Source: a virus
Reading direction: 5' to 3' (one strand)
Virus record (IMG/VR): IMGVR_UViG_3300030329_004481
DNA length: 64,000 nucleotides
How positions within the stretch are numbered: the stretch's first letter is position 1; each line of letters begins with the position of its first letter. The notes under the pieces are model-generated. The model was not told the origin of the DNA, did not search any database, and worked only from the letters and a program-made list of their open reading frames with translations. The position numbers were made by a program, and so were the translations under genes. Below are positions 46,157 through 64,000 of the stretch, piece after piece.

Positions 46157-46164
46157 TATTTATA
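46157..46164 (-). promoter_or_regulatory. late promoter TATAAATA for gp13-gp16
   Basis: exact motif upstream of gp13. Confidence 0.75.
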
Positions 46165-46172
46165 AGGAAGGA

Positions 46173-46874
46173 TTGATGACAACTGAGATTGATGAAAACA
46201 AGATAAACATTGATTATTCTTTGTTTTCTTGGGATGATTATGAAGAATTTATGACGCAAGTACAATATGTTCTTATGAATCCATTTTGGTGTGTTTCAAA
46301 TCAACATATTAATATGATGTGTGAGATAATTGATCATGACAATGATAAACTTTTAGAACATTCTCTAAAATCATTTGATGAAAAATATACCCAAATTCAA
46401 CAAATACATTTGCACAACTTCTATTTGCAACAAGTTGATACATTTTTTAATATATTTTTACTTTACAATAATCACAATTTTAATTATCAAAATAATATAA
46501 AAGAATTAACAAAAAAATATGGAAGGTATGATGATCAAATAGAAAAATATGTTATTGTGACAAATGTAGAAGAATATGAACTATTTATTAAAGAAAAACA
46601 AAAATTAGACAGTACTCTTGCGTTAACTGAATATGATAAAATAAATCCTAATTTATACCTACAAGAAATAAATTTAATTTTATTTAAAACTGAACGAACA
46701 AAATACAACAGTTATTTATCAATAATTGATGAAAATGCGGACAACGCTCCGCCAAAATATAAACGCAAACCACTATTAATGTACAAACTTATTTCAGATA
46801 TCTTTGATATCAAAAAAATTCAAAATTTAAAAATAAATTATGAACTAATCAATAAGCATTTTACAAATTACTAA
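46173..46874 (+). CDS. hypothetical protein (paralog of 47536..48177)
   Basis: AAGGA RBS; shares IxYSxFxW, YxKIxP and DIFD...NLKIN. Confidence 0.7.
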   Translation: MMTTEIDENKINIDYSLFSWDDYEEFMTQVQYVLMNPFWCVSNQHINMMCEIIDHDNDKLLEHSLKSFDEKYTQIQQIHLHNFYLQQVDTFFNIFLLYNNHNFNYQNNIKELTKKYGRYDDQIEKYVIVTNVEEYELFIKEKQKLDSTLALTEYDKINPNLYLQEINLILFKTERTKYNSYLSIIDENADNAPPKYKRKPLLMYKLISDIFDIKKIQNLKINYELINKHFTNY

Positions 46875-47542
46875 TGGAACTATTAATTACTGGTGATAAA
46901 GGTTTTATAGGATCAAATCTTGTAAACTATTTAAAAGATTATCATATCTATGGTATAGATTATCCCAATAACATTATGACTTGTGTTTTACCACCTGTTG
47001 ATTGTGTAATACATTTGGCGGCTTCAACAGGTGTAAGAGGATCACATAAACATCCAAAATCATATTTTGATAATAATGTAAAAGCAACAAAAAGAATATT
47101 TGATCATTATAAAGATACAAAAATTTTATTCGCATCAACATCATCTGTAAAACAATTACAAAGTCCATATTCAATGTCAAAATATGCTTGTGAACTTATG
47201 GCTCCTGATAATGTTGTGATCATGAGATTTTTTACTGTATGGGGAGAACAAAATTATAGGAGTGATATGTTATATGGTATGGCTATGAATGATAAATTAA
47301 AATATGTAACAGATCATAAAAGAGATTTTACTCACATCTATGATGTTTGTAGAGCAATTAAAATTCTGATTGAAAAGGGAGTTGGTGGAGAAACTTATGA
47401 AATAGGACATGGAACACCAATTACTAATTCTGCATTTTTAAAAAAGATAGGGTACAATAAATCGTTGAAAATAAAAGAAGTAGAAGGTGAATCTGATATT
47501 ACTTGTGCAGATCCAACCAAAATAAAAGAATTGGGATGGTAA
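46874..47542 (+). CDS. NAD-dependent epimerase/dehydratase
   Basis: ITGDKGFIGS, HLAA, YSMSK, RFFTVWG, RDFTH. Confidence 0.9.
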   Translation: MELLITGDKGFIGSNLVNYLKDYHIYGIDYPNNIMTCVLPPVDCVIHLAASTGVRGSHKHPKSYFDNNVKATKRIFDHYKDTKILFASTSSVKQLQSPYSMSKYACELMAPDNVVIMRFFTVWGEQNYRSDMLYGMAMNDKLKYVTDHKRDFTHIYDVCRAIKILIEKGVGGETYEIGHGTPITNSAFLKKIGYNKSLKIKEVEGESDITCADPTKIKELGW

Positions 47543-48177
47543 AAAAAGTTAAGATAAATTATAGTTATTTTGAATGGTCTTATTTTTCTGATATTTTAAA
47601 AATAATATCTAGAATATGTTTATATCCTGCTGAATTGACCGGGCCAAGGATAGGAAATAAAATGATGTCATTTTTTGATGAAAATACTCTTAAATTTTCA
47701 AAGGATAGAAAATTTCAAATATATTTAAATATTACAAAAAATATAAACACATTATATAAAATATTCAAAGAATATGAATTGCATTACAATATCTACAAAA
47801 ATGAAAAAAAGAATATAACAAATGATCAAAACTTATTACTTGAAAATAATAAAATTATTAAAAAAATTGATAAATTAAATAAAAAAGTGCACACATTATC
47901 ATACAATAAAATTGATCCAAAATATTTTATATTTACTTTTTATTATATGCATAAAGCTTTTGGAAAATATATGGTTGGTTCTAAAGGTTTTAATAATAGT
48001 GAGAATGGAAATGAACTACAAGATATATCAAATATAAAAATGATAATGAAAGAACCTTTTTTTACTGTACATATATTTGATGTTTTATATGATATTTTTG
48101 ATATGGACGAACTAGACAATTTAAAAATAAATGAAAAAATTATAAATGAGATGTATTCAGAGTTAATAAATGATTGA
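47536..48177 (+). CDS. hypothetical protein (paralog of 46173..46874)
   Basis: shared motifs as above; start placed at MVKKV. Confidence 0.65.
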   Translation: MVKKVKINYSYFEWSYFSDILKIISRICLYPAELTGPRIGNKMMSFFDENTLKFSKDRKFQIYLNITKNINTLYKIFKEYELHYNIYKNEKKNITNDQNLLLENNKIIKKIDKLNKKVHTLSYNKIDPKYFIFTFYYMHKAFGKYMVGSKGFNNSENGNELQDISNIKMIMKEPFFTVHIFDVLYDIFDMDELDNLKINEKIINEMYSELIND

Positions 48178-48784
48178 TATTATAATAATATTTTTATGGT
48201 GGCACATCATAGCAACATTTGGATTATCAATAGGATATCATCGATATTTTTCTCACCAAACATTTAAAGTATCGTATACTTGGGAAATAATATTTTTAAT
48301 ATGTGGTTATATGTGTGGAGCAAGATCACCAATTACTTGGGCAGCAGTTCATAGATTACATCATGAATATTCAGATACTAAAAAAGATCCACATTCACCA
48401 AAATTTATAGGATTAAAATCTTTATTTTCATTGTGGACTATTGATTACATTCCAAAAAAATATTTCAAAGGATTATTAACTCCCCATTTAAGATTTGCTC
48501 ACAAATATGGAAAATATATATGGTTAGGAATAGGTTTGATACTATTGATAATTAATTTCAATTTCTTTGTAATTTTTTGGTTGTCACCATTTTTAATTAG
48601 TTATATTGGATTTGGAATATTAAATTATTTTGGTCACAATCCAACTCCAACTAATAGATTGTGGATTAATTTATTTGCTCCAAGTGAAGGTTGGCATGAA
48701 GAACATCACAATCATCCATCAAAATATAAAATGAACAAATATGATATCGCTGGATTCATTATTACAAAAATCAAAAGCAGTTAG
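48170..48784 (+). CDS. membrane fatty acid desaturase (delta-9-like)
   Basis: His boxes HRYFSH, HRLHH, HEEHH; DPHSP; TM helices. Confidence 0.9.
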   Translation: MIDIIIIFLWWHIIATFGLSIGYHRYFSHQTFKVSYTWEIIFLICGYMCGARSPITWAAVHRLHHEYSDTKKDPHSPKFIGLKSLFSLWTIDYIPKKYFKGLLTPHLRFAHKYGKYIWLGIGLILLIINFNFFVIFWLSPFLISYIGFGILNYFGHNPTPTNRLWINLFAPSEGWHEEHHNHPSKYKMNKYDIAGFIITKIKSS

Positions 48785-49532
48785 AACATTTCCATTATTT
48801 CCCTTACCGGAAATAGAATTAGATTTAACAGAAGTAAAACATTATAATTGGAATAGTACAAATATAAAAGAATGGTTAAGTCCAGTTATAGATTTGTCAG
48901 GGTTTGAATATGTTTATCCAATAAATGGTATTACAGAGGGATTAAATTATTGGATGTGGCAAGAAGATAGAATATGGATGCATAGTGGAGATTATCAATG
49001 GATAACACCTTCTGTACCACATCAAAATATGGGTATAACATATTTGACAACACCATCATCTATAGATGGAAACTTTAAAGAAGTACCTAATGTATATAAT
49101 TATGTTCTTGATATAGCATATGTAGGATCAACTAAAATTGAAAAAATTAATATACATAACAATGTACAAAAAATATTTTTCTCATTGTCAAAATGTTTCG
49201 GTTTGCGTAACATAAGAACAGGGTGGTATTTTAGTAAAACTCCTGATAAAAAATTAGAACTACTAATAGGATCTGCAAAATATTATAATTATTATGCACA
49301 AGCAGTAGCAGAACATTTTATCAATAAATATGATATAGATATTGTATATAAAACTCTTCGACCTATACAAGAAGAAGTATGTGAACAATTTAACTTAATA
49401 CCTTCTGATGTTGTATGGTTAGCAACAACCAATGATCCAAAATTTGAAAAATTTAAAAGAGGAAACATTTGCCGTGTCAGCATTGCGGAAGAAATATCAA
49501 CTGCCTACCATAGCAGAATTACCACAAATTAA
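48741..49532 (+). CDS. PLP-dependent fold-type I enzyme (aminotransferase-like)
   Basis: GITEG, LDIAY, FSLSKCFGL...RTGW. Confidence 0.75.
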   Translation: MISLDSLLQKSKAVRTFPLFPLPEIELDLTEVKHYNWNSTNIKEWLSPVIDLSGFEYVYPINGITEGLNYWMWQEDRIWMHSGDYQWITPSVPHQNMGITYLTTPSSIDGNFKEVPNVYNYVLDIAYVGSTKIEKINIHNNVQKIFFSLSKCFGLRNIRTGWYFSKTPDKKLELLIGSAKYYNYYAQAVAEHFINKYDIDIVYKTLRPIQEEVCEQFNLIPSDVVWLATTNDPKFEKFKRGNICRVSIAEEISTAYHSRITTN

Positions 49533-50121
49533 AATAAATTTATCAAAATTAAAAACAGAATATCTAAAATTTTGCTCAAAATTTATAGATGTGGAAACTG
49601 CAAATCCTCATTTATGTATGAATCATAAAAAACTTGTAAGTGAAGTTTATGATAATTTTGAACAAATAAATCTTACAGAATTAAATGGCGAGCCCATGCC
49701 ATATACTGATAATATAAAAGAAAGAATAAAACGTAGAGAAGAAACATTATACAATAAAAAGACACAAGATTATATTGGTAGTTATTTTGAAAATATAGTA
49801 GAACAATTTATATCTCCTGCTATGAGGATAAGAATTACAAAACTTGCTCCTAAAAAAGAAATAACATGGCACACAGACTATGACCCAACATATGCTACAA
49901 GAATTATTATACCAATATATTCCAATAAAAAAGTTAAAAATTTATTTAAAGTCAGAAAAAATGTTGAAGAATATTTTTTAGAAGAAGGTAAAGCATATTT
50001 TATAAATGGGGGATTTGCTCATTCAGTTAAAAATGATAGTGAAAATTCAAGAATTGCATTAATGTTTAGTTTAGATGGACAAGATGATTTGGAAATTGTG
50101 CCCAATAGAATTACATATTGA
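49432..50121 (+). CDS. 2OG-Fe(II) oxygenase (Asp/Asn beta-hydroxylase-like)
   Basis: WHTD, RIIIP, HSVKN...RIAL. Confidence 0.8.
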   Translation: MIQNLKNLKEETFAVSALRKKYQLPTIAELPQIKINLSKLKTEYLKFCSKFIDVETANPHLCMNHKKLVSEVYDNFEQINLTELNGEPMPYTDNIKERIKRREETLYNKKTQDYIGSYFENIVEQFISPAMRIRITKLAPKKEITWHTDYDPTYATRIIIPIYSNKKVKNLFKVRKNVEEYFLEEGKAYFINGGFAHSVKNDSENSRIALMFSLDGQDDLEIVPNRITY

Positions 50122-50542
50122 AGAAATAAAAAAATTATTTAACAAAACAAAAGGACATAAACATCAAGACAATTATATTAAATGGCCTTTATTTGAATAC
50201 ACAAAATTTGCAAGAATGGGGTGGGACAAACATCTTATATATTATTCTGCTGGTATTGAAAGACCTGAATACAATGGATCAATTAGAATAATGAGTAGAC
50301 ATACTAGAGACAGATCATATAATTTTGGAACATATAATGATGATTTAAAAAGAGGTTTGGAAACTTTAGAACAAAGTACATACTATGCAAAAAAATTAGG
50401 ATATAAAAATATATGGGTTAGTAGAGAAGAAAGTCCAAAACTTTTAGAATATTTTTCCAAACATTCACAATATGATTGGAAATTAAATTATGAAAAATTA
50501 CATTATGGTGGTAAACAATATATTTTAAGAATCAATGACTAG
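50075..50542 (+). CDS. hypothetical protein, possibly GNAT-like
   Basis: RIMSR...YAKKLGYKNIWVSRE. Confidence 0.5.
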   Translation: MDKMIWKLCPIELHIEEIKKLFNKTKGHKHQDNYIKWPLFEYTKFARMGWDKHLIYYSAGIERPEYNGSIRIMSRHTRDRSYNFGTYNDDLKRGLETLEQSTYYAKKLGYKNIWVSREESPKLLEYFSKHSQYDWKLNYEKLHYGGKQYILRIND

Positions 50543-51161
50543 TATAGTTTTTCCTCCTGGTAAATTTTTTTGTTACTTGAGACAACCAAAAAGTGCAAGT
50601 CTAAGTATGACAAAATGGATTATAGATTTTGCAAAACAAAATAAAAAACCATACTTAACTAGTTTGCCTTATCAACAAAAAAATTTTAATGTTGATTATG
50701 AAAAAAATACAATAATCACCCACCACATGACCGCACAAAGATTAAAAAATACTATTCCTCAATGGTGGAATGATATGGAAAAAATGGTAACAGTTAGAAA
50801 TCCATGGAATATTTTAGCAAGTAAATTCTATCATATGAAAAAATTGGGTGTTAATCAAGTTGCAACAAATACCTTTAAAGAATTTTGTTATGAATTAAAA
50901 AATTTAAGGGGAACTTTAAATCCAGGAGAGAACTACTATAAAATTGATGGTGATATGATCGCAGATCATATTATTCCTGTAGAAAATTTACAAGAATATT
51001 TAAATGAAATTTTTAAAGATTTTATTGTTCCAAAAGTTCAACACACAAATATAGGAACAGTAACACAAGAAAAATATAAAAACCTTTATACTGATGAAAT
51101 AAACAATATGATAGAAATTGATTTCAAATATGAAATAAAATTATTTGATTATAAATTTTGA
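50535..51161 (+). CDS. sulfotransferase family protein
   Basis: PKSASLS 5'-PSB-like, HMTA, VRNPW...S. Confidence 0.75.
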   Translation: MTSIVFPPGKFFCYLRQPKSASLSMTKWIIDFAKQNKKPYLTSLPYQQKNFNVDYEKNTIITHHMTAQRLKNTIPQWWNDMEKMVTVRNPWNILASKFYHMKKLGVNQVATNTFKEFCYELKNLRGTLNPGENYYKIDGDMIADHIIPVENLQEYLNEIFKDFIVPKVQHTNIGTVTQEKYKNLYTDEINNMIEIDFKYEIKLFDYKF

Positions 51162-52711
51162 TGTAATGGCCTAGATGGGTCACTTTCCCAACCAATCATA
51201 TCATTCTCAAAATTTAATTCATTGATATTTGACAAAGGAACAAGATTATCTTGAGGACGTTTATAATCTGCAGCATTTCCTTTTTCATGATCACCCAAAA
51301 CTATTCCCCCTTCACCATAAACACTTCCTGTTTTAAATTTCAATTCAATACATAAATTTTCTATTTCTTCTCTGCGTCTCACTCTAACATCCATAGTATT
51401 ATATTCTTTTCCATTCTTTGTAACCCATTCATTTTCTTCATCAACATAATAATCAAACATATTATTTTTAAATACTGGTGCACCAGGTAAAATTATCATT
51501 GTTCCACCAATTTCTATTCTACTGATAGGATTTCCATTGATCATATGTTTATGATTTTTTATCCACTCTAAATTTTCTTTATGGTGTTTTTCTTTTTCAT
51601 TAGGATATCCAACAACCATTAATAAAACAACATTAACATTATATTTACTATATAATTCTAAATTTTTTTCCATTATATCATTACTAAATTTTTTTCTCAT
51701 GTGAGTGCGAATTTCTTCTGAAAAACTTTCTACACCAATACTAAGTTGTTTAATATTTGCTCTTTCCATTTTTTCATATATTCTTTCAGGCTGATTTTTA
51801 AAAATAGCCAATCCTTTGATGGATTTAAATAATGATCCATCTTTTATTATTAAATCTAATAATTTTTCAAATTCTTTTTGATTGCCATTAATCAAACTAT
51901 CATAAAAATATATTTCATTAATTCCAATATTTAATAAGTTTTTCATTTCATCATAAATATTTTTCGCACTTCTCCATCTAAACTTTGGCCAATAATGCTC
52001 TACATCACAAAATGTGCATCTCCTAACACACCCACGACTTCCCATTATTCCTGCTTCAAGTTTTTCATATTTCCAATTTGGATTATAATGAACTCTCAAT
52101 CCTCCTGGATCACCAGAAACGTAATTAGCAAAATCAATTCCTGTATAATCAGCTATAGGCAATTGGTCTAAATTTTCTATTTGTGGTGATTTGACAATTC
52201 TATCTTTTATTTCACCTTTAATAATTTTAGGTAAAACCAAATCTCCCTCATTTGATACAGCATGATCTGCTAAATCATTTTCAATGATCCATTCAGCATA
52301 AGTTGATATTGGTGATCCACCAACTATTATTTTTTTATTAGAATTGTATTGTTTAATTTTAGGACTTAACATTTTCAAAGTGGGCAAACTTCTATAACTA
52401 AAACAACTTATTCCTGCCCATTCAGCATCATTGTTTGCAATTTCTTTTGCCCATTTTTCAATGTAATCATTATAAACTTCTTTAACAAATTGTTTGAATT
52501 TCTTTCCCTTATACAAATCTGTATTGGATTCTTTCCATATTTCCCACCATTTACTATTAATTGTATCTTTCCATAATTCATAATTAAAATCTCTCAATTC
52601 AACATCAATACCTTCTTGTTTACAAGAAGCCTGTAAATACCCTAAAGCAAGACTAGGAGTATTAACTCCATTTTTAGGAATAGTACATAGGAGTAATTTA
52701 TTTTTCATCAA
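51149..52711 (-). CDS. B12-binding radical SAM enzyme
   Basis: PSLALGYL, IIVGG, GSRGCVRRCTFC, FYDSLING, IGVES, VGYPNE. Confidence 0.88.
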   Translation of the reverse strand: MMKNKLLLCTIPKNGVNTPSLALGYLQASCKQEGIDVELRDFNYELWKDTINSKWWEIWKESNTDLYKGKKFKQFVKEVYNDYIEKWAKEIANNDAEWAGISCFSYRSLPTLKMLSPKIKQYNSNKKIIVGGSPISTYAEWIIENDLADHAVSNEGDLVLPKIIKGEIKDRIVKSPQIENLDQLPIADYTGIDFANYVSGDPGGLRVHYNPNWKYEKLEAGIMGSRGCVRRCTFCDVEHYWPKFRWRSAKNIYDEMKNLLNIGINEIYFYDSLINGNQKEFEKLLDLIIKDGSLFKSIKGLAIFKNQPERIYEKMERANIKQLSIGVESFSEEIRTHMRKKFSNDIMEKNLELYSKYNVNVVLLMVVGYPNEKEKHHKENLEWIKNHKHMINGNPISRIEIGGTMIILPGAPVFKNNMFDYYVDEENEWVTKNGKEYNTMDVRVRRREEIENLCIELKFKTGSVYGEGGIVLGDHEKGNAADYKRPQDNLVPLSNINELNFENDMIGWESDPSRPLHQNL

Positions 52712-53309
52712 TGATCATATATCGCACAGGATTGTCTCCTAAATTTTTTACCTCATGGGATTTAGTGACATCTAGTTGCCATATTTCTCCTGGTTCTAGA
52801 TTGTGCGTAATTCCTTTACAATCTTTAAAGCAATTACCCCCATTAGTACTTATTATCAAATGATAACGATTTGTTTCATTATCACCATCTATATGAGGTT
52901 TAAGAACAAAATTTTTATATCTTTGTCCAACAATAGCTTCACTTTTACTTAAATCACAACCAACTTCATTCTCTATTGATTTTTTAATATAGTCTACTAC
53001 TGTACTTGTATCTTTTAAATATTTAGCAGAAAGTGTGGTGGTATGCGTTTGATGGTTAAACAACCTCAAACTCATAGCATCATATAATTCAAAATTATCT
53101 ATTCTTTGTTGTTTCAGTCCTTGCTTTCTATTAGCATACCAACTTTTTTGAGTTGTTCCTCCAGGATATATTATCATAGTTCTACGAGGAAGATCTTTAT
53201 CAGCATATTTTTCATAGTCATTAACTAAATCATAGTAGGGTGATAATTCTTTATTTAACATATCTAACTTGTCAAAAAAGTTATATTTTAATTTTACTAT
53301 GTTACTCAT
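52698..53309 (-). CDS. 2OG-Fe(II) oxygenase (AspH-like)
   Basis: PHID, RYH, HEVKN...R. Confidence 0.78.
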   Translation of the reverse strand: MSNIVKLKYNFFDKLDMLNKELSPYYDLVNDYEKYADKDLPRRTMIIYPGGTTQKSWYANRKQGLKQQRIDNFELYDAMSLRLFNHQTHTTTLSAKYLKDTSTVVDYIKKSIENEVGCDLSKSEAIVGQRYKNFVLKPHIDGDNETNRYHLIISTNGGNCFKDCKGITHNLEPGEIWQLDVTKSHEVKNLGDNPVRYMIIDEK

Positions 53310-53883
53310 CTAAAAAATCCACTATCAAATGTATGCGACTATGTGTCAAACTATCATTATTTGCTGCATGCTCTTTACTTGTATCCAATTTCCATATCTC
53401 ACCTGGCTTAGGATAAAATTTTTTTTCTGATTCAAATATTTCAAAATAACTATCTTTGTTAGATGTTAAGGGTATGTGATATCTTGTTAATCCCATAGTA
53501 TCAATATGTTTTTCTAATCTAAATTTTGATCCAGCATATACTATAGCGACTTGTACTTTACCATTTACTCCCAATGTTTTTATTAATTTTTTCACATAAG
53601 GACTTATGGTATCTTCTTTTTTTAAGTAAGCACTCACCATCCTAGTACCAAATTTTGTGTATCTTGTATATAACTTGACATGATTATTTTCTATAATATC
53701 CCATTTTTCTCCTTTACGTTTATGACTAGTATAGTGAGATGTACCAGAAGGATAATTGCACATAACTCTAATTATATCATCAGGCCATTTGTCAGCGATT
53801 TTAGTAACTTCTTGTATGTAATACTGCAAATCAATAAGTAATTGTTCACTATCAACATTAATGTTTAATTTTTCACACTGCAT
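53302..53883 (-). CDS. 2OG-Fe(II) oxygenase (AspH-like)
   Basis: HID, RYHIPL, HAANN...RIHL. Confidence 0.8.
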   Translation of the reverse strand: MQCEKLNINVDSEQLLIDLQYYIQEVTKIADKWPDDIIRVMCNYPSGTSHYTSHKRKGEKWDIIENNHVKLYTRYTKFGTRMVSAYLKKEDTISPYVKKLIKTLGVNGKVQVAIVYAGSKFRLEKHIDTMGLTRYHIPLTSNKDSYFEIFESEKKFYPKPGEIWKLDTSKEHAANNDSLTHSRIHLIVDFLDE

Positions 53884-54376
53884 TTACATCTCCAATCAAA
53901 TGTAATCTATTTGTTTTTCCAAAATTGTACGCCGTGTGTTTTTTACTAGTATCTAATTCATATACTTGGTTAGGTAAATAATTAATTTTAATATCTTCTG
54001 TTTCAATGAAACAATTTTCATTTGTAGTTATTGGAATGTGTATTCTAGTCCCTTCAAAATAATCAGTATGCCAATTCATTTCAAACCCTGGACTCATACA
54101 AGCAACTACAAAATTGTCAATATTATATTGCTGTTTTATATCTTGTAAGAAATTTAAATCATATTTTTGTTTATATTTACAATGATATATCTCAATATTA
54201 GGTTTAGGACCAATGCATTTGTATATATTATTCTCAACAAATGTAGGCAATTTCATTTGTTCCCAACTACGATGTTCACTTATATAAAAAGTTATCCTAC
54301 ATGGTTTTTTTATAGAATTTGTTAATTCTTCAGCATTGTCAATAATGAATTTAAAATTGTTGGTTAAGTTGACCAT
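53873..54376 (-). CDS. 2OG-Fe(II) oxygenase (AspH-like)
   Basis: WHTD, RIHIPI, HTAYN...RLHL. Confidence 0.82.
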   Translation of the reverse strand: MVNLTNNFKFIIDNAEELTNSIKKPCRITFYISEHRSWEQMKLPTFVENNIYKCIGPKPNIEIYHCKYKQKYDLNFLQDIKQQYNIDNFVVACMSPGFEMNWHTDYFEGTRIHIPITTNENCFIETEDIKINYLPNQVYELDTSKKHTAYNFGKTNRLHLIGDVNAV

Positions 54377-55966: not shown

Positions 55967-56597
55967 TCCGACCTCCTAACGCTTTGTCCCATAACCAATA
56001 ACAAGCATCTGGTGTGGGTTCAACATTTAAAAGCAAAAGCAAACAACCATCAATAAAACTTACAACCCAATGATTTTTTAAAGTATTCAAAAAATATGAT
56101 TTTCCTTCTTGTAATGGTAAAATTTTATCTTCATACCCCCACTTAAAATCATTTGTTCCTGTGTTCCAAATTGGTATAACAATGCGAAATGAATCCAATC
56201 CATCGTGGTGAGGGGGAAATATACCACCTTTATTTAAATTTATAAAGTGACTTCTACAAAGATAAGGTTTTGCATCTTGAATAAGTGGAATATCATCTGA
56301 TACTAAATCATACAATTCTGTTTTAGTTTTAAAATCAGTCTCTAAAAAATTAGTACCATTTTCTTTATTATAACTTCTGATACTATCTACACTTGGACTG
56401 ACAGGATTACCATCTTTATTTACAATAGCCAATCCCTTCACACCTGGATTTACTCTCTCAAACCATCCATTTTTATCTCCATATTCAAAAACTTTCTTTG
56501 CTATTTTCACATAATCAATTTTAGGATATAGAGTTTCTAAAAAATCGCCGGCACTAACTATAGCACTATAGTTAAGTTGTCTGTCTAGCATACTCAT
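55938..56597 (-). CDS. 2OG-Fe(II) oxygenase (AspH-like)
   Basis: PPHHD, RIVIPI, LNTLKNHW. Confidence 0.72.
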   Translation of the reverse strand: MSMLDRQLNYSAIVSAGDFLETLYPKIDYVKIAKKVFEYGDKNGWFERVNPGVKGLAIVNKDGNPVSPSVDSIRSYNKENGTNFLETDFKTKTELYDLVSDDIPLIQDAKPYLCRSHFINLNKGGIFPPHHDGLDSFRIVIPIWNTGTNDFKWGYEDKILPLQEGKSYFLNTLKNHWVVSFIDGCLLLLLNVEPTPDACYWLWDKALGGRNAPKRTTWP

Positions 56598-57204
56598 TAA
56601 AATGCTCCTTTATTTTTTCAAAAGTATAATCATATTTAAAATTCAATTGAAATAAAAAACGTTTTTTATTTGTTTTATTTTCTACACTATGTTTTATTTC
56701 AGTATTAATTAAGGTAGTTTGATCATATATTGTTTCAAATCTTTTTGGTGTTAACCAATAAGTTGTGCTACCTTCAAGACTTAAAGGAAAACTCAAATTA
56801 CATTTTCTAAAACTATCAATATGTGGAATAAATGTGCTATGTTCTGGAATAACAATAATACTAGAACAATGAAAAAATAAATTTAAATCAATATCTAAAT
56901 TACTTATTACATCAGATATTAATTCTCTTGAGTGATTTAATAAATTAAAATAATGTTTTTGATCTGATACTGGAACTAATTCAGGACTTTCAATATATGC
57001 ACCTTGATTAAATGAATTAGCTATTGTTAAATATTTACACTTTTTATCCTCAACAGCATCGTATGAAATTACTTTGTCATTAGTTACAGTAAAAAAATAT
57101 CCATTCTTTTCTAATTTTTTTACTTCATCATATATTAAAGAACGTAAAAAATTATCTAATTTATAATCAATATTAATCCAAAGGTTTTTTGAATCCAAAT
57201 TCAT
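56572..57204 (-). CDS. 2OG-Fe(II) oxygenase
   Basis: PHID, NLSFPL, INT...HSVEN...RFLFQ. Confidence 0.75.
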   Translation of the reverse strand: MNLDSKNLWINIDYKLDNFLRSLIYDEVKKLEKNGYFFTVTNDKVISYDAVEDKKCKYLTIANSFNQGAYIESPELVPVSDQKHYFNLLNHSRELISDVISNLDIDLNLFFHCSSIIVIPEHSTFIPHIDSFRKCNLSFPLSLEGSTTYWLTPKRFETIYDQTTLINTEIKHSVENKTNKKRFLFQLNFKYDYTFEKIKEHFNEYARQTT

Positions 57205-57790
57205 CTATTTCCCATGCATAATCTCTATGTATAAAACTATCAATTTTTTCTGAAACTTTAATATCTTCTTGATCATAATTTTGTACTAATATTTTAGGAA
57301 CAGTACTTATATTAAAAAATTTTTTCATAATTTTATTAATATCCTTTACATCATAAACATCACAAATAACATTATTATCAATAGTATAAATTTCACGATT
57401 AAAATTACAAGTTCCTTTAATATCAATTAAACTTTTTGTAAAATCTTCAATATTATTGAGACAGTAATTATTTAAGTTTTTCCAATTATATTTAGAACCT
57501 GTATATTTGTTAAAGTAATAATAACTAATTAAACATATCCAAGGGTTTCTTATAAAAGTAAATTTTTTTGAAATGTTCCACACGTCCAATCTTTTTTTCA
57601 AAACTTTAGCGGACATATGACTAATAAATTTATAATCATCAAGAGTGTCCGTATCTTTACTTCTAACTTCTAAAATACTTACAGAATTTTCTTCAGCATA
57701 CTGTCTCATACATTGTTTGACTGCATGACTACCTGTTTTTTTACTACGCAGGTATACTAATGGGGGATTCTGATATAGGATTGTTGGCAT
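57173..57790 (-). CDS. sulfotransferase family protein
   Basis: KKTGSHA, HMSA, FTFIRNPW...ISYY; start placed at MPTILY. Confidence 0.75.
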   Translation of the reverse strand: MPTILYQNPPLVYLRSKKTGSHAVKQCMRQYAEENSVSILEVRSKDTDTLDDYKFISHMSAKVLKKRLDVWNISKKFTFIRNPWICLISYYYFNKYTGSKYNWKNLNNYCLNNIEDFTKSLIDIKGTCNFNREIYTIDNNVICDVYDVKDINKIMKKFFNISTVPKILVQNYDQEDIKVSEKIDSFIHRDYAWEIDEFGFKKPLD

Positions 57791-59561
57791 GCTTTTTTTC
57801 CATACTTCCATCTGAAGAATATAATTTAAAATACTTTTTTTTAGTTTCAAAAATGTCAATATGATCTATTGTAAAATTTTTATATACTAATCGTATTTCA
57901 TTTGCTGCTATATCTAAATTATCATATATATCAACAGCTTCTCTTAATCTCATATGACTTTTAATTATATATTGAACACTTAATAAATCAGTAAGCCACA
58001 CTTTATCTGAATTAGTAGTAAGATTTTTTCTAAAAGCATACTGGTGGTCTAATAAAAATGATTTAAATAATGGCATATTATCTATATTGTCAAAAAAATC
58101 ATATGCTTGTTCTCTAATATGTTTTTTACTATTCAACATATATTTTCTAGCAAAACCAGTATTAAATAATGTACCAAACCACCACCAATACATATACATT
58201 TGTTCCAAATCTTCAGTAGAATAACTATAGCATCTATTAAACATAGTAATACTTCGCCATTCTAATTTATTATTTTTATTATTTTTAGTTTTATAATTTT
58301 TTGCATTAAGTCTATTTTTATGATAATCTGTCAATTTTAAATCTAATAAATCTTTTGGTGCATAAATCTTAATCAAATTAGCATTATATTTTTTCCTAAA
58401 TTCTTGACTATAATATGTTGTGTTTGGCATAACAGTAAGAGGATAAGCTCTATTGAAATAACATCCATTGTCTATATCTTTTTGTAAAACATCTAACCAA
58501 GTTTCTGATGTTTCACCAGGCATTCCTATTATTAATTCACTATTAATTTCATAACCTTGTTTTTTTACTTCATTATAAATTTCAATCATTTTTTCATTTC
58601 TAATATTACTTCTTTCAGCAACTTTTAATGCTTCCTCTGTATGGGTTTGGATACTCAATTTCATAGTATTATTATTTTCTTCAAATTCTTTTTGAATTGT
58701 AGACATAATTTCTGGTAAGAACCTACTACCATTTTTAGCTAAACCACAAAAGGTCACTTTCATGTCTTTATTGTATTCATATTTCTTTACAACAAGTTCT
58801 CTAATATATTCAAGATCTTCTTTAAATATTCCATAATTAGCATCAATAAATTCAATTCTACTAATATTTCCTTTAAAGGCATATTCTATAACTTTTTTAA
58901 TTTCATCTTTATCAAATTTTGTTATCTTACTTCTAATAACACTTCCCCAATCACAAAAAGCACAAGAATAAGGACATCCCCTATTAGTTTCCATAGGAAT
59001 AACCACATTATCTCCATCCATTTCAAAAAGATGAGTTAATGTCCCATCAGTATATGGTGTTGGAGTCCATTCAACCTTATAAAGTTTTCTATCGACATTT
59101 ACATTATTCCAACCAATTCCAACTGTACCTTCATGAGTATTAAAAGGTTTGTCAATATTCAACAAAAATTGTTTAAAGTTTTCTTCAGCTGGGCCGACAA
59201 AATGTAAATCAGAATACGGCCTTTCAATACAAAATTCTTGTGAATCTTTATTATTTTCTGGAATCTGAGGTCCACCATAAACAACAATTCCATTTGGATT
59301 TATTTCTTTAAATCTTTTAGCTATTCTATCATTAATTTCTTGATTCCATATATAACAAGTCAAACCCAAAATGTCAGTCTTTTCTAATTTTTCTTGAAAT
59401 TTTTTACTACTTTCATTTCTTTGTAAAAATTCTGGTTCAAGAAAATTAAATTTTTTTAATATTTTTTTATCTTGCTTGCAATAAGATATCAAACACCCAG
59501 CTGGATATGGAAGCCAATCTTGAAACTGTATACTAAAAGTGCATATTAGTATATTTTTCAT
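57744..59561 (-). CDS. B12-binding radical SAM enzyme
   Basis: WLPYPAG, CYIWN, VYGGPQ, ETNRGCPYSCAFCDWG, DANYG, ELIIGMPGET. Confidence 0.9.
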   Translation of the reverse strand: MKNILICTFSIQFQDWLPYPAGCLISYCKQDKKILKKFNFLEPEFLQRNESSKKFQEKLEKTDILGLTCYIWNQEINDRIAKRFKEINPNGIVVYGGPQIPENNKDSQEFCIERPYSDLHFVGPAEENFKQFLLNIDKPFNTHEGTVGIGWNNVNVDRKLYKVEWTPTPYTDGTLTHLFEMDGDNVVIPMETNRGCPYSCAFCDWGSVIRSKITKFDKDEIKKVIEYAFKGNISRIEFIDANYGIFKEDLEYIRELVVKKYEYNKDMKVTFCGLAKNGSRFLPEIMSTIQKEFEENNNTMKLSIQTHTEEALKVAERSNIRNEKMIEIYNEVKKQGYEINSELIIGMPGETSETWLDVLQKDIDNGCYFNRAYPLTVMPNTTYYSQEFRKKYNANLIKIYAPKDLLDLKLTDYHKNRLNAKNYKTKNNKNNKLEWRSITMFNRCYSYSTEDLEQMYMYWWWFGTLFNTGFARKYMLNSKKHIREQAYDFFDNIDNMPLFKSFLLDHQYAFRKNLTTNSDKVWLTDLLSVQYIIKSHMRLREAVDIYDNLDIAANEIRLVYKNFTIDHIDIFETKKKYFKLYSSDGSMEKKHANNPISESPISIPA

Positions 59562-59980
59562 GATGTTACTGTTATTTCTTTTATTTTATAAGGTTGTTGT
59601 AAGATCCAATCAATTATGCTAACCGCATAATCAACTGGCATTTTAGATACATTTTTATTTTTTTGACTTTCAGTATCTATATAACCAAAATTTACACAAG
59701 TTGTATGTATACCTTCAGTAAACAAATGGTGGTTTGCTTCTCTAAGAGATTTTTTTTCTATTGCGTATCTATAACGAAATGTATAATCACTAGCGTGTGA
59801 TCCTATATTAATTATACGTTTATTTAACTCTGCGGCTTGGTATAATAATTCTACTTGTTCAAAACCATTGTGTTTACAATTAATAAAAATATCACAAGAT
59901 TTTAAATTTTCACAATTTCCATACTTTTCAACAAGAGATTTTCCCAAACCCCTTCTTGTTCCTGTAATAAAATATTTCAT
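59558..59980 (-). CDS. minimal short-chain dehydrogenase (SDR)
   Basis: ITGTRRGLG, IINIGS, YAIEK; start placed at MKYF. Confidence 0.78.
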   Translation of the reverse strand: MKYFITGTRRGLGKSLVEKYGNCENLKSCDIFINCKHNGFEQVELLYQAAELNKRIINIGSHASDYTFRYRYAIEKKSLREANHHLFTEGIHTTCVNFGYIDTESQKNKNVSKMPVDYAVSIIDWILQQPYKIKEITVTS

Positions 59981-61008
59981 AAAAAGGTTTTGTCTCCCGG
60001 CCATAATGGTAATTTGACTCCAGGTTTACGTTTGGGTATTTTACTATCAGCAGAACTTACACAAGCATCTGACAAACAAGGTTGCGGACTATCAAATAAT
60101 TTAAATCCTGTTTCTATATTACCTAAAGGTAAATCTCTGCAAGAATAAGACCGCTTAATGCTCCCATCAGGCTCGCGGATAATGATACTGCGATGGCCAG
60201 ACGAACAATCCCACCCCCTGAAATTATTAAAATTAAACGCATTGAATCTTTCTGCTTGATCCATTTCATAAGTTTCACCTTTTGAGTCTATTAATTCTAT
60301 TTCCATAGTTGGAGTTTTTGATTCATTATATAATATGTCTAATTGACTATCTGTGTATCCTTCTACTACTTTTGTGGCAGTTGGATTAGATTGTGGTTTC
60401 AATGTTGTATGTATCCCCCTCTCTTTGAAATACAAAACATGATCACATAATTTAAAAAATCTTTCCGGAACCATAACCATATTTATTGTAATGCGAATAC
60501 CATTGTCTTGACAGAAAACTAATTTGTCAGCAAATTCTTCTATTTTCTTTTCTGTATTTAAATGTTCAAAATGTGCAGACGCAGTAATAGAAGCTCTGTC
60601 AAATTGTTTTGCGTATTTTACATATGTCTCAAACCAACTCATTTTACGTGAGCAGTTTGATGTCATGTGAATTCTTTGTCTCTTACAATTAATATTATCA
60701 TCAGCTAAATGTTGCAAAATATTTAAATATCCAGGATGAAAAGTGGGTTCTCCACCAGACAAAGACCAATTAAAACTATTAAACCCATTGTTTCTTGCTT
60801 GACGTTTTATTTCATCTATGGTAGATAAACATAGTTCCGTAGGTCTATGATCTTTTTTATCTGACCTAGCATAAGGCCAACAGTATGTACATTTGTAATT
60901 ACAGAACCTGCCAAGTAACCATGACACAGTGAATGTATCATGATAAAGCATAGTTTTTGTTCCTACAAGTTCTATATCATTAAAAGGTATTTTTGTAAAG
61001 TCTAACAT
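59977..61008 (-). CDS. radical SAM enzyme with a C-terminal Cys-rich (SPASM/twitch-like) region
   Basis: CNYKCTYC, SGGEPT, C...G..I..DG, PC...AC. Confidence 0.88.
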   Translation of the reverse strand: MLDFTKIPFNDIELVGTKTMLYHDTFTVSWLLGRFCNYKCTYCWPYARSDKKDHRPTELCLSTIDEIKRQARNNGFNSFNWSLSGGEPTFHPGYLNILQHLADDNINCKRQRIHMTSNCSRKMSWFETYVKYAKQFDRASITASAHFEHLNTEKKIEEFADKLVFCQDNGIRITINMVMVPERFFKLCDHVLYFKERGIHTTLKPQSNPTATKVVEGYTDSQLDILYNESKTPTMEIELIDSKGETYEMDQAERFNAFNFNNFRGWDCSSGHRSIIIREPDGSIKRSYSCRDLPLGNIETGFKLFDSPQPCLSDACVSSADSKIPKRKPGVKLPLWPGDKTFL

Positions 61009-62819
61009 ATTCTTTTTATTTTTAATAAATTTTTATGTGAATATTTTTCAATATCTATAACATTTGCAAATTTATTAAAAAAATTAACATAATAAGTTGG
61101 ATCACCTGAAAACCAATTCCTTTCACCTTCTGCAATACAGAATATAAATGTGCCATTTATTTTTAATAAATTTTTAAAAATTCTTTTTACTGTTTCTTCT
61201 ATATAAAAAAAATCTTTAACTTCTTCATTTAAACCATTGAATAAATTTAATCCAACCGCATACATACTATCAAATTTTTCCAAAGGAGAATATGTATAAA
61301 GATTTTCAACTAAAAAATTAGCTCCTTTAGAATTATTTCTAGCATACTCAATTGCTTTATCTGATAAATCTATTCCTGTCACATCTTTATATTTGTAATT
61401 ATCATATAAAAAATTAGTATGAATTCCCATGCCACAACCAAAATCTAAAAGTTTATCAGAACAATTCCATCCAGAAAATTTTTCAATTTTTGGAATATAA
61501 TCTTTTGAATATTGTTTTAAACCTTCTATTTTGTTTTCTTTTGATAAATTTAAATCTGAACTTGGTCCCATATCACTTTTAAAAAACATTTCTTCATTTG
61601 CATAATACTTGGTTTGATGAACATTGTATAAAGTAGATGGACAAACATGAGACAAATATCGATATTCTTTTCGATTTATCAACCAAGGACAAGCCGTTAC
61701 CAAGTCTTCAGCATTAGGTTTAACAAAATCCGCTAATTTAGTAAAAGATAAAAAATCATAATAACTATCTTTATCTTGTTCCGCTTGTTTAAAACCTTCA
61801 GCTAATTTTAAAATTCCACTTTTTGTTGACCTTTTGTTTACAGGAATATTTTTTATTATTAAATCATGTGCTTTTTCTAAATGCTCTTTTGGTAAAACAG
61901 AATAAGATAAGTATTTTGGAAAAGCAACTATATTTTTAAAATAACTATCTATACCTTGTTCTTCAAAATATTTAAATATTTTAACTGGTTCAAAAATATT
62001 ATAAGCCATCCATAAAGTAGTTATACTTAAATATATATTAAATACTTTTTTAAATTTTTTTATATTATCTAATACGTGTTCAATTGTAAAATTTTGTCCA
62101 CCTCTAATATATTGATATAATACATGATCTAATGCTTCTAAACTAATTGATAAATTAACTTTTTTAAAACATTGAAATAAATTAATAAATTTTTCATTAT
62201 ATATTGTTCCATTTGTATGAATATCTAATATAACATTTTGTGTGTTTATATTTTTAATAATATAATTTAACAATTCAATATTTGCTGGTTCAGCAAAAGG
62301 TTCTCCACCTTTTATCGCAATAAATTCTATATTTGGGCATTTATTAATAATATCTTTTACTGTTTCTAAGTTATTAGCATTTTTTTTAAAAACATTTCCC
62401 TTATCTTCATATTGTCTTGGAAACCCTCTATAATCTTTCCAGTTAAATTTTTCAAATATTTTTTCAGTTGGTATCCATGAAGTGCTGTAACTTCCACTAC
62501 ACATTTTACATTTTAAATTACAAATATTACTCATATCAATCTCCAACATACGAATATCCATTACATCATGAAATTCAATATGTTCAAAGGATTGATTGAG
62601 AAATTTTCTACGACTCCATCCTACTTTATCTTCTTTTGTTTTACAACTTATACAATTATTATGAAATTTTCCATCTAATAAAGATTTCCTCAGAGATTCT
62701 GTCTGTTTCCAATATTCATCTAAATTTTTTGTAGGATTTGAATTCTTATACACAGGATCAGGTAATAAAGAACCATCCATATGAACAACTAAACTATTCC
62801 AAGGAGCTTTACAAAACAT
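61002..62819 (-). CDS. twitch-type radical SAM enzyme fused to a class I SAM methyltransferase
   Basis: CKAPW, CISC, CNLKCKMC, GGEP; C-terminal LLDFGCGMG, GIDLS. Confidence 0.85.
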   Translation of the reverse strand: MFCKAPWNSLVVHMDGSLLPDPVYKNSNPTKNLDEYWKQTESLRKSLLDGKFHNNCISCKTKEDKVGWSRRKFLNQSFEHIEFHDVMDIRMLEIDMSNICNLKCKMCSGSYSTSWIPTEKIFEKFNWKDYRGFPRQYEDKGNVFKKNANNLETVKDIINKCPNIEFIAIKGGEPFAEPANIELLNYIIKNINTQNVILDIHTNGTIYNEKFINLFQCFKKVNLSISLEALDHVLYQYIRGGQNFTIEHVLDNIKKFKKVFNIYLSITTLWMAYNIFEPVKIFKYFEEQGIDSYFKNIVAFPKYLSYSVLPKEHLEKAHDLIIKNIPVNKRSTKSGILKLAEGFKQAEQDKDSYYDFLSFTKLADFVKPNAEDLVTACPWLINRKEYRYLSHVCPSTLYNVHQTKYYANEEMFFKSDMGPSSDLNLSKENKIEGLKQYSKDYIPKIEKFSGWNCSDKLLDFGCGMGIHTNFLYDNYKYKDVTGIDLSDKAIEYARNNSKGANFLVENLYTYSPLEKFDSMYAVGLNLFNGLNEEVKDFFYIEETVKRIFKNLLKINGTFIFCIAEGERNWFSGDPTYYVNFFNKFANVIDIEKYSHKNLLKIKRIC

Positions 62820-63996
62820 TTTTTAATTCTATAAATTTGTCTAAATTGAAAGAAGAATCTATAGCTAAATTAAACTCATTAAAATCTACCATTGATGCTT
62901 TTTTATGATAAGATCCTTGACTCTCTCCATAATCTAAACTCAAATATTGTATTAGTGTTTTTCTTAATCTAGGATATCTTGTTTTGATATCATTTTTTTT
63001 ATATTTTTTAATAAGATTATCTTTATACCTTTTTGGTAAAACATAAATTGTTAAAGGTTCTGGTGTAAGTACTCTATTTGATCCAATCCACGGCCATTCT
63101 TCACAATCAGATTTAATATGACTAAATTGCTGAACATAATCAATATATTCCTCAAAAAAATGAATGTTCAACGCTTGCCAACATGGAGCAAAATGAATAT
63201 CCCAATTTTTATTTTCTGTTATGAAAGAAAACCAAAGTCTGATAACATTATCAATTTTTTCCCAAGATACTCCTGGTCTTATGTATTCATTTAATTCACC
63301 AATACCATCTATACTAAGTTTTATTACACCACCATTTGCTAACTTTAATTTTTCTATTATTTGATCATCTGGAAATATTGTTCCATTAGTATTATATTCA
63401 AAAAATATATTTTGAATCATATTTTTAGGCATTAATTGAATAAAAGAATTATGTTCTTTACTTATAAATGGTTCTCCTCCCATAATTTTTATATATTCCA
63501 AATTAGTAAACATGGAAGGATCTTCAATTTCCATTTTCCATAAACCTTTATCTCCTGTATCTAAGGACCATTTTTTATTATATAAAGATGAAAATTTTCC
63601 CCAAACACTATTCCATTTTGTACTATAACTTGGACCACACATTCTGCAAGTTAAATTGCATTCATTTGAAAAAGATATATCAAGAGCTTTAATTTCAGAT
63701 AAACTTTGATTTATATTATAATTTTTTAATTCAAATTTATCATTCATAAAAATTCTATAACTATTAACACCCATCTTTTCTTTGTTTAAACAACGTTCAC
63801 ATCCAGCTGGAATTTTCCCTTCTATCATTTCTTTTCTAATTTCTTTAAAATAATCAGAATTAAAACTATCAATTATAGAAGAATCTTCAACTCTAGGAAC
63901 TTTTACATTATTTGATCTATTTTGTATTTTATTTTCAAATTCACAACATGGACCAAATACATGATTTTGAAACTGCTTTACATGAATAAATGGCAT
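62809..63996 (-). CDS. twitch-type radical SAM enzyme (true start probably beyond the window edge)
   Basis: PCC, CERC, CNLTCRMC, MGGEP, TNGT, SIDG..YIR. Confidence 0.85.
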   Translation of the reverse strand: MPFIHVKQFQNHVFGPCCEFENKIQNRSNNVKVPRVEDSSIIDSFNSDYFKEIRKEMIEGKIPAGCERCLNKEKMGVNSYRIFMNDKFELKNYNINQSLSEIKALDISFSNECNLTCRMCGPSYSTKWNSVWGKFSSLYNKKWSLDTGDKGLWKMEIEDPSMFTNLEYIKIMGGEPFISKEHNSFIQLMPKNMIQNIFFEYNTNGTIFPDDQIIEKLKLANGGVIKLSIDGIGELNEYIRPGVSWEKIDNVIRLWFSFITENKNWDIHFAPCWQALNIHFFEEYIDYVQQFSHIKSDCEEWPWIGSNRVLTPEPLTIYVLPKRYKDNLIKKYKKNDIKTRYPRLRKTLIQYLSLDYGESQGSYHKKASMVDFNEFNLAIDSSFNLDKFIELKNVL

Positions 63997-64000
63997 AACA

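Follow-up and report, generated by a model that had tools for sequence, protein, structure and literature searches.

A 32-kb island of radical SAM enzymes and 2-oxoglutarate oxygenases in an uncultured marine T4-like phage, with a core found in other phages and Bdellovibrionota and a possible role in carbohydrate tailoring

The stretch of DNA analysed in this study (the window) is 64,000 nucleotides of the IMG/VR virus record IMGVR_UViG_3300030329_004481, and it contains from 46173 to 64000 an island of tailoring enzymes arranged as two convergent operons of overlapping genes. ORF (open reading frame) calling placed eight overlapping ORFs in a plus-strand operon (46173-51161) and a series of overlapping genes in a minus-strand operon, which enters from beyond 64000 and runs down to 51149, so that the 3′ ends of the two operons overlap by 13 bp (51149-51161). 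An earlier reading of the letters and their ORF list, made without database searches (the sequence-only reading), had described this convergence and had judged the island AT-rich by eye; both points were confirmed, the GC content being 0.270 in the island against 0.320 in the remaining window (27.0% vs 32.0%; Mann-Whitney p = 1.5e-6). The island genes within the window, including those for radical S-adenosylmethionine (SAM) enzymes, AspH-like 2-oxoglutarate (2OG)-Fe(II) oxygenases, short-chain dehydrogenases/reductases (SDRs) and a pyridoxal phosphate (PLP) enzyme, are listed with the matches or motifs behind each assignment.

46173-46874, plus: orphan, 233 aa, first gene of the plus operon; paralogue of 47503-48177, no Pfam, PHROG or NCBIfam match
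46874-47542, plus: shortened extended-SDR of the nucleotide-sugar epimerase/dehydratase type, 222 aa; PF01370 2.3e-21, 76.8 bits against a cut-off of 20.9; GxxGxxG and YxxxK motifs
47503-48177, plus: orphan, 224 aa; paralogue of 46173-46874
48170-48784, plus: miniature delta-9-type membrane desaturase, 204 aa; PF00487 5.5e-10; His boxes HRYFSH, HRLHH and HEEHH
48741-49532, plus: short PLP fold-type-I enzyme, class I/II aminotransferase type, 263 aa; SxSK lysine and family fold
49432-50121, plus: AspH-like 2OG-Fe(II) oxygenase, 229 aa; PF05118 2.6e-7, triad
50075-50542, plus: orphan, 155 aa; no Pfam or PHROG match; 67% identical in the closest IMG/VR relative (L003) and 58% in another phage locus (L148)
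50535-51161, plus: sulfotransferase-like, 208 aa; PF00685 0.0073, 16.2 bits against a cut-off of 22; PHROG 3347 (Gal-3-O-sulfotransferase) 0.001
51149-52711, minus: B12-binding radical SAM enzyme, 520 aa, final gene of the minus operon; PF04055 4.3e-21, PF02310 5.6e-10
52698-55966, minus: five consecutive AspH-like oxygenases, 203, 193, 167, 300 and 238 aa; PF05118, BLAST paralogy and H..D..H
55938-56597 and 56572-57204, minus: two divergent 2OG oxygenase-like genes, 219 and 210 aa; no Pfam match, facial triad aligned
57173-57859, minus: sulfotransferase-like, length 228 aa (ORF call) or about 205 aa (gene call); PF03567 1.7e-4, 22.2 bits against a cut-off of 22
57744-59561, minus: probable B12 radical SAM C-methyltransferase of the TokK/CysS/KedN5 class, 605 aa; PDB TokK 7kdx 1.4e-43, CysS 9n1b 1.1e-27
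59558-60004, minus: mini-SDR, 140-148 aa, partner of rSAM-343; TGxxxGxG and YxxxK motifs
59977-61008, minus: core radical SAM enzyme rSAM-343, 343 aa, with a C-terminal Cys-rich (SPASM/twitch-like) region; PF04055 1.3e-13
61002-62819, minus: N-terminal-twitch (N-twitch) radical SAM enzyme fused to a class I SAM methyltransferase, 605 aa; NF033640 202.8 bits; PF04055 with Methyltransf_25, _31 and _11
62809-64000+, minus: N-twitch radical SAM enzyme, 402 aa, cut by the window end; NF033640 247.9 bits

The island is truncated by the window. The source contig, a 244,604-bp metagenome contig (ENA ERZ5402506 NODE_14), was reached by exact-protein look-ups and read outward, which gave a full island of about 32 kb with 38 genes in three operons, larger than the 18 kb or more given in the sequence-only reading. 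The minus operon runs about 10.9 kb past the window end and adds four N-twitch radical SAM enzymes and a 356-aa radical SAM enzyme (rSAM-356). It further contains an AspH gene with a strong match, another PLP paralogue and several orphans. The minus operon is followed by a third, divergent operon of six genes, including a P4H-type 2OG oxygenase and a methyltransferase-like gene, and the island ends at about window-equivalent 78433. In total, the island contains at least 10 radical SAM genes and 10-11 oxygenase genes. All intergenic gaps among the 38 genes are 15 bp or shorter, each ORF is at least 148 aa, and the desaturase is the sole protein with transmembrane-like segments by hydropathy. 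No nonribosomal peptide synthetase, polyketide synthase or precursor ORF is present, as had been said from the sequence. The suggestion that the island makes a ribosomally synthesised and post-translationally modified peptide (RiPP) was rejected because no gap exceeds 15 bp to house a precursor and because a RiPP recognition element (RRE/PqqD), leader protease and exporter are lacking: the RRE/PqqD, protease and transporter Pfam families generated no hit in any island protein at E <= 0.01-0.05.

The five radical SAM enzymes of the window were all confirmed by Pfam and NCBIfam scans. Two of them carry B12 domains, one carries the C-terminal Cys-rich region and two belong to NF033640 (N_Twi_rSAM); the radical SAM motif lies within about 20-40 residues of the N-terminus, or after the twitch segment. 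The 520-aa B12 enzyme (51149-52711) scored under the cut-off of every NCBIfam subfamily and was 74% identical in L003. The other B12 enzyme (57744-59561) aligned with TokK over residues 15-394, sharing the B12-type N-domain and radical SAM core with TokK/ThnK (carbapenem) and CysS/KedN5, and probably works like a C-methyltransferase of the TokK/CysS class. It differs from these enzymes in lying in a phage island without beta-lactam or aminobenzoate pathway genes, and its score of 160.6 bits against NF033712 (KedN5 subfamily), far below the cut-off of 700, does not make it a member by the curated threshold. The best-conserved gene of the island is rSAM-343, which was 50-62% identical in loci of Bdellovibrionota and the candidate phyla radiation (CPR); its profile matched viperin, anSME and SkfB at about 1e-7, and was closest to viperin and MoaA-type nucleotide-acting enzymes.

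The curated whole-protein cut-off of NF033640 is 170 bits, and it was exceeded by two window genes; four more genes past the window end also belong to the family. NF033640 is a named family without an assigned reaction, comprising 6,292 clusters at 50% identity (E <= 1e-30); what distinguishes the island is an array of at least six divergent paralogues (22-31% identity in BLAST), one of which is the methyltransferase fusion at 61002-62819 that accounts for the methyltransferase domain noticed by the sequence-only reading. The N-twitch proteins have four conserved N-terminal cysteines ahead of CNLxCxxC, followed by GGE and SxDG motifs. In the alignment of six paralogues, C6, C73, C76 and CNLxCxxC were invariant and are predicted to bind Fe-S clusters, and the N-terminus generated a weak match to the BtrN twitch (E 0.078). 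Many of the best N-twitch profile matches are about 800-870 aa long and contain two full matches, being tandem-fused double N-twitch radical SAM proteins. Searches of the literature found nothing specific on enzymes with an N-terminal twitch, on radical SAM arrays in Bdellovibrio or on radical SAM enzymes acting on sugars.

The eight AspH-like 2OG oxygenases that had been counted in the window were likewise recovered. Five of them pass PF05118 (gathering cut-off 22.6 bits), plus one past the window; 55250-55966 was placed in the group via BLAST to a paralogue. The H..D..H triad was invariant in an alignment of nine AspH-like paralogues, three of which fall below the Pfam cut-off and are members by alignment only. 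The adjacent AspH genes 53302-53883 (193 aa) and 53873-54376 (167 aa) correspond to one 377-aa tandem-domain gene in the closest relative (L003:15215-16348). A 371-aa island protein may be another 2OG oxygenase, its ESM Atlas scores below 0.9 making this a lead only. The two sulfotransferase-like genes are paralogues by BLAST; inspected for the 5′-PSB and 3′-PB motifs of PAPS-dependent sulfotransferases, they show, as judged by eye, PKS/KTG (KTGS/PKSAS) and RNPW motifs. Their Pfam and PHROG matches are weak, one barely over the Pfam cut-off and the other below it, and they are kept as candidates for the two sulfotransferases of the earlier call.

The epimerase and the SDR named in the sequence-only reading correspond to 46874-47542 and 59558-60004, respectively. 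The former generated LegB/RmlB/GalE-type NCBIfam matches, and all 32 of its 32 PDB matches were nucleoside diphosphate (NDP)-sugar enzymes, the best being 6zl6 (4.5e-13). As it is 222 aa long compared with about 320 aa, part of the substrate-binding domain appears to be missing. Homologues of the mini-SDR were found in L003, a 201-kb T4-like contig (L004), viral loci and bacterial cluster 6 (weak adh_short matches). The PLP enzyme (48741-49532) is paralogous to a 293-aa gene past the window, and the family alignment contained the invariant SxSK lysine; the AlphaFold2 (AF2) model of the family (pLDDT 93.3) has the fold-type-I fold, with C-S lyases, GntC, CobD-type decarboxylases and class I aminotransferases matched by Foldseek at about 1e-9. 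A sphingolipid-like reading of the plus operon was dropped because this model is matched best by C-S lyases, CobD and aminotransferases rather than by oxoamine synthases. The desaturase was confirmed by PF00487; at 204 aa it retains all three His boxes of delta-9 acyl desaturases, and it recurs in related phage islands, at times twice. The GNAT-like call for 50075-50542 was not verified, the protein having no family match. The profile of a 242-aa methyltransferase-like family matched no solved structure. The true start of the first plus-operon gene is likely the ATG at 46176, behind AAGGAAGG.

Conservation was assessed first against individual phages. Dozens of assemblies, some of them from Tara Oceans surface samples, contain proteins identical to those of the window (longest contig, 251,780 bp). 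The carrier, with a genome of about 245-252 kb, is an abundant marine T4-like phage that has not been cultured; its major capsid protein (MCP) is 60-63% identical to Methylophilales, Pelagibacter and cyano-myophage MCPs alike. When the island was compared by megablast with 50,697 phage records, no match was obtained, and tblastn of the 520-aa B12 enzyme gave a weak Streptomyces phage match and nothing else. The closest IMG/VR relative (L003) carries the entire window part of the island in the same order with 34-81% amino-acid identity, and has at least seven N-twitch genes over the cut-off; the part past the window differs between the two in the number and identity of radical SAM genes. The 201-kb T4-like contig (L004) carries a different island in the same slot, straight after gp13; in common with the window island it has rSAM-343 and the accompanying mini-SDR, as well as N-twitch and AspH genes and the desaturase. 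A cassette of desaturase, PLP enzyme, AspH and the 155-aa orphan moves as a unit in L003 and L148.

At least 473 relatives of rSAM-343 were found in viral contigs by profile search, and 80 of these loci were fetched for counting of co-occurring genes.

N-twitch genes beside rSAM-343: 77-78 of the 80 viral loci, about 3.5 copies each
356-aa radical SAM enzyme: 62 of 80
mini-SDR: 22-36 of 80
AspH types: 17-30 of 80
PLP enzyme: 23 of 80
desaturase: 19-20 of 80

These counts indicate a mobile core with variable accessories. The core is rSAM-343 with its mini-SDR partner, the 356-aa radical SAM enzyme and several paralogous N-twitch radical SAM enzymes. Counted as accessories are the AspH-like hydroxylases, the B12-dependent C-methyltransferases (one of them of the iterative TokK/CysS class), SAM methyltransferases, sulfotransferases of the PAPS type, PLP enzymes of the amino-acid type, the NDP-sugar-type SDR and the small desaturase, so that the island is a mosaic of cassettes. 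Random gene content across relatives had been named in the sequence-only reading as grounds for discarding its idea of a pathway; the content is not random, with order and co-occurrence kept. Genes of other kinds accompany the module elsewhere: a PP-loop protein of about 250 aa (SGGADS; e.g. L123:7953-8693 and L148:4560-5420) occurs in 36 of the 80 loci and a nitroreductase-family protein in 24, neither being present in the island of the window.

The core was also found outside viruses. An N-twitch scan of one genome per prokaryotic species, with a query built from the closer paralogue set since the six-paralogue alignment was too divergent, gave 241 relatives in reference genomes. The best 77 loci of these 241, to which the counts below refer, belong nearly all to Bdellovibrionota, with a few from CPR (Parcubacteria, Dojkabacteria) and others.

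rSAM-343: 47 of the 77 bacterial loci, identity up to 61%
rSAM-356: 47 of 77
242-aa methyltransferase-like gene: 25 of 77
PLP enzyme: 19 of 77
mini-SDR and AspH: rarer

Some bacterial genomes have more than one locus, and radical SAM arrays reach 9-11 genes in a row; across loci, there are 2 to 11 copies of N-twitch paralogues, arranged in no fixed order. Among the non-homologous neighbours, the glycosyltransferase family GT2 was the sole recurrent annotated family (17 of the 145 nearest neighbours), and GT2-like genes occurred in at least 21 of the 77 loci. The genome of the isolate Bdellovibrio sp. HCB2-146 has 11 GT2 matches, of which five fall within a 17-kb locus at about 1.882-1.899 Mb of NZ_JBLEQP010000001.1; this locus also contains a GNAT gene, a methyltransferase and a 641-aa fibre-like protein with a Peptidase_S74 chaperone domain (L021:15278-17203); such an S74 fibre neighbour was found in just one other fetched locus.

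On one side the island of the window is bordered by T4-type neck and tail genes.

46157-46164, minus: T4-type late promoter, TATAAATA, directly ahead of the gp13-like gene
45368-46114, minus: gp13-like neck gene, 29% identical to the PF26809 gp13 of the 201-kb T4-like contig (L004)
44524-45366: gp14, PF11649
43625-44524: gp15, PF16724
43221-43634: gp16, Pfam

The far flank, read in the source contig, consists of virion structural and fibre-like genes, including a 1999-aa DUF4815 protein, a gp8-like gene and structural proteins of PHROG 6005 and 32294. The fibre-like genes have a high content of Ser, Thr and Gly; apart from ordinary beta-helix repeats, they show no repeats of a collagen-like kind or otherwise recognisable as a target. 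The adjoining region, where the sequence-only reading had suggested looking for precursor ORFs or repetitive fibre targets, offered these beta-helix repeats and, between its island genes, no gap large enough for a precursor. The late promoter TATAAATA is missing from the island operons and is not enriched in the window, and promoter scans at both operon starts gave matches at chance level only. Adjacency to gp13, also stressed in the sequence-only reading, was confirmed here and in L004. In the 80 viral loci, the module is flanked by ThyX, RNase H and CobS/CobT-like genes, with no neck or fibre homologue within 10 kb; therefore, adjacency to gp13 is not a conserved property of the module and the position is weak evidence for a virion-protein target.

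The island is a real, conserved and striking feature, of a class that has been described but is functionally unsolved. The "host recognition cluster" (HRC) of pelagimyophages and cyanomyophages is a hypervariable island that lies between VrlC and gp14 and carries cassettes of radical SAM genes together with glycosyltransferases and AspH, for which modification of the O-chain was proposed from GT8 genes, the radical SAM module not being dissected (Zaragoza-Solas et al. 2020, PMC7029224). The present island lies in the same slot, between VrlC/tail-fibre genes and the gp13/gp14 neck, is likewise tens of kb long and is non-syntenic between relatives, so that slot and behaviour match the HRC. It differs from the HRC in having no sequence-detectable glycosyltransferase and in its load of radical SAM and oxygenase genes, and its phage is equidistant from pelagi-, methylophilales- and cyanomyophages by MCP identity. 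Runs of divergent 2OG-Fe(II) oxygenases are also known in marine T4-like phages, as in the tandem dioxygenase arrays of cyanophage Syn9, and AspH accompanies P-loop sulfotransferases in bacterial beta-hydroxylase and sulfotransferase operons, for which hydroxylation followed by sulfation was proposed (Iyer, Abhiman, de Souza, Aravind 2010, PMC2938197). Those arrays include JmjC, classical 2OGFeDO and halogenase members, whereas the oxygenases of the window are nearly all PF05118-like and lie inside a radical SAM operon, and the window island has no tail-collar or collagen-like substrate gene. Virus-encoded synthesis, in the cytoplasm, of glycans for virion proteins, as in chlorovirus PBCV-1 (A64R) and in mycobacteriophages, resembles the island in placing sugar-handling enzymes beside structural genes. 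Mycobacteriophage virion glycosylation is reportedly the subject of work by Freeman et al. in 2023. To our knowledge, radical SAM and 2OG oxygenase chemistry is not part of the chlorovirus or mycobacteriophage glycan systems.

The data above show which enzyme families are present, how the operons are built, that the core is conserved and that RiPP components are missing; the substrate class and the biological purpose of the island we infer as follows. We tentatively favour combinatorial tailoring of a carbohydrate-containing molecule as its function, the modified target being most likely a sugar-type surface molecule rather than a peptide. The reasons for favouring carbohydrate are the NDP-sugar SDR, the GT2 enrichment in the bacterial clusters and the suggestive GT-A-like N-domain of a 447-aa protein described below. 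During infection, the enzymes would act in the cytoplasm on a carbohydrate-containing precursor, be it a nucleotide sugar or a glycan linked to lipid or protein. The precursor would be diversified stepwise, with epimerisation, deoxygenation and C-C or C-methyl formation brought about by radical H-abstraction chemistry, then hydroxylation, and then capping of the new hydroxyls through O-methylation or sulfation. The outcome might be an altered surface structure relevant to recognition, either on the host envelope (superinfection exclusion) or as a decoration of the virion. Of the three options offered by the sequence-only reading, host envelope or glycan remodelling fits best, the virion-protein option is weakened and the RiPP option is unsupported.

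The 447-aa protein is encoded just past the window (L002:16405-17748) and models as a GT-A-like N-domain followed by a methyltransferase C-domain. The fold of its N-domain matched a dozen glycosyltransferases with Z 6.3-7.9, among them PBCV-1 A64R with a weak Z of 6.7 beside other GT-A enzymes. With Foldseek, the 447-aa model generated weak matches to NNMT/PNMT methyltransferases only in the PDB and to uncharacterised phage proteins only in BFVD, and its ESM Atlas scores, below 0.9, provide a lead only. In the relative protein P0033 (693 aa), a protein of the 447-aa type and the following AspH gene are fused into one, from which it can be argued that the two share a substrate. BLAST of Pfam-confirmed bacterial GT2 proteins against the island and its phage relatives gave no match, and a GT2 profile aligned by hhalign with the 233-aa orphan reached a probability of 0.1, as it did with the 447-aa family. 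Of the components of O-antigen or capsule-type loci, namely glycosyltransferases with a flippase, polymerase or ABC exporter, none was found in the phage island.

Several observations weigh against carbohydrate tailoring. No glycosyltransferase was detected in the island by the sequence tests (Pfam, BLAST, hhalign), and the GT-A-like match of the 447-aa protein, with Z below 8, was rated by the tool as possibly a common arrangement. The NDP-sugar SDR occurs in just two of the 80 viral loci, and other phage versions bring PP-loop ATPases and nitroreductases. The PLP enzymes resemble those of the amino-acid type (C-S lyases, CobD, GntC) and not the sugar aminotransferases of the DegT type; TokK and CysS, to which the B12 enzyme is closest among solved structures, have small-molecule antibiotics as their substrates; and the desaturase suggests a lipid. 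Five large related phage genomes, one of them complete (342.6 kb), are mostly without GT2, and none has GT2 near the module. On the bacterial side, GT2 is missing from the two largest radical SAM arrays examined, and a search for the Wzx flippase found none near the clusters.

The first rival explanation is that proteins, for instance tail fibres or others of the virion, are hypermodified after translation; the radical SAM enzymes would epimerise or C-methylate residues, AspH enzymes hydroxylate them, and sulfotransferases or methyltransferases cap the products. We consider this, the main idea of the sequence-only reading, unlikely. In its favour, the island lies between the Ser/Thr/Gly-rich fibre-like genes and the neck genes, and in another T4-like phage the island directly follows gp13. 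In a further T4-like lineage (146-kb contig), a lone N-twitch gene lies directly downstream of the major capsid gene gp23 in two independent contigs (L006:10001-11131 and L007:5917-7047). AspH, anSME and SkfB-type relatives have protein or peptide substrates, the Bdellovibrio locus adjoins the S74-chaperone fibre protein, and P0033, with its GT-A-like, methyltransferase-like and 2OG oxygenase parts, resembles the collagen lysyl hydroxylase LH3. Tail-collar and collagen-like proteins were the targets proposed for beta-hydroxylase and sulfotransferase operons (Iyer et al. 2010, PMC2938197). Against these points stand the 80 viral loci without neck or fibre homologues nearby, the lack in the island operons of the late promoter present ahead of gp13, the lack of collagen-like or obvious target repeats in the flanking fibres, and the rarity of the S74 neighbour.

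A second rival explanation is a free small molecule made from an amino acid, nucleoside or cofactor by a scaffold-less pathway that starts from a host metabolite, with the product manipulating the host or competitors. Iterative methylases of the TokK/CysS class are known from antibiotic pathways only, the PLP enzymes are of the amino-acid type, near GntC, CobD and C-S lyases, and the rSAM-343 profile is nearest to viperin and MoaA-type enzymes acting on nucleotides; PP-loop ATPases (SGGxDS) and nitroreductases recur in the other phage versions. Metabolite synthesis was also suggested for the dioxygenase arrays of cyanophages (Iyer et al. 2010, PMC2938197). However, the island has no exporter, resistance gene, scaffold enzyme or ligase, and GT2 genes are enriched at the bacterial loci. 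The copy number of 2-11 and the free order of the N-twitch genes are more in keeping with a polymer that is decorated combinatorially than with a fixed route to a small molecule, and we doubt that the product is a free small molecule.

The island might instead hold no single pathway but independent cassettes collected in a recombination hot spot, with, for example, the plus operon and its desaturase, SDR, PLP enzyme, AspH and sulfotransferase remodelling a host membrane lipid and the radical SAM operon being unrelated to it. Its genes do lie in three separate operons, its sole membrane protein is the desaturase with delta-9-type His boxes, and the cassette of desaturase, PLP enzyme, AspH and 155-aa orphan travels together in L003 and L148. 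Hypervariable islands of marine T4-like phages are known to gather unrelated host-like genes (PMC7029224; PMC3037559). But the desaturase, PLP enzyme, AspH and mini-SDR occur beside the radical SAM core far above chance in both phages and bacteria, and they are interleaved with radical SAM genes in other loci, so we regard separate cassettes as quite unlikely.

A broader idea, which we regard as rather improbable, is that the core and its accessories form an "attack-surface editing" kit shared by predators of bacteria, namely large phages, Bdellovibrionota and CPR episymbionts, that would combinatorially rewrite a glycan or protein on fibres used for host recognition. Such radical chemistry would be new for surface structures, and it would diversify recognition or shield fibres from the defences of the prey.

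Hypermodification of phage DNA or RNA, such as a tailored sugar or side chain on a base, is very improbable: many related phages carry the module among nucleotide-metabolism genes (ThyX, RNase H), PP-loop ATPases accompany it in other phages and glycan hypermodification of phage DNA is said to have been documented by Pyle et al. in 2024, but Pfam revealed among the island proteins no base-modifying enzyme, whether hydroxymethylase, DpdA/TGT or Tet/JBP above threshold, and no DNA glycosyltransferase, the chromosomal Bdellovibrionota clusters are hard to explain in this way, and the DNA-modification clusters known to us are far smaller than 38 genes.

If the product of the island were identified, a chemistry would be assigned to a large orphan family, the N-twitch radical SAM enzymes with their approximately 6,300 clusters at 50% identity, and an explanation would be at hand for why more than one-tenth of an abundant ocean phage genome is spent on oxygen-sensitive iron-sulfur and cobalamin enzymes. 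As the core is present in cultured Bdellovibrio, the function of these hypervariable islands of marine T4-like phages can be tested by ordinary genetics combined with glycan and protein mass spectrometry.

Two further features of related loci were recorded. The island of the 201-kb contig also holds a polysaccharide lyase (PF14099; L004:8234-9040) and a SpoU methylase beside its radical SAM genes. Genes for CobT-like (DUF2201 metallopeptidase/VWA) and MoxR/CobS-like AAA proteins lie near the module in L145:14128-16500 and in about 28 other viral loci, a point worth noting in view of the cobalamin-dependent enzymes of the module.

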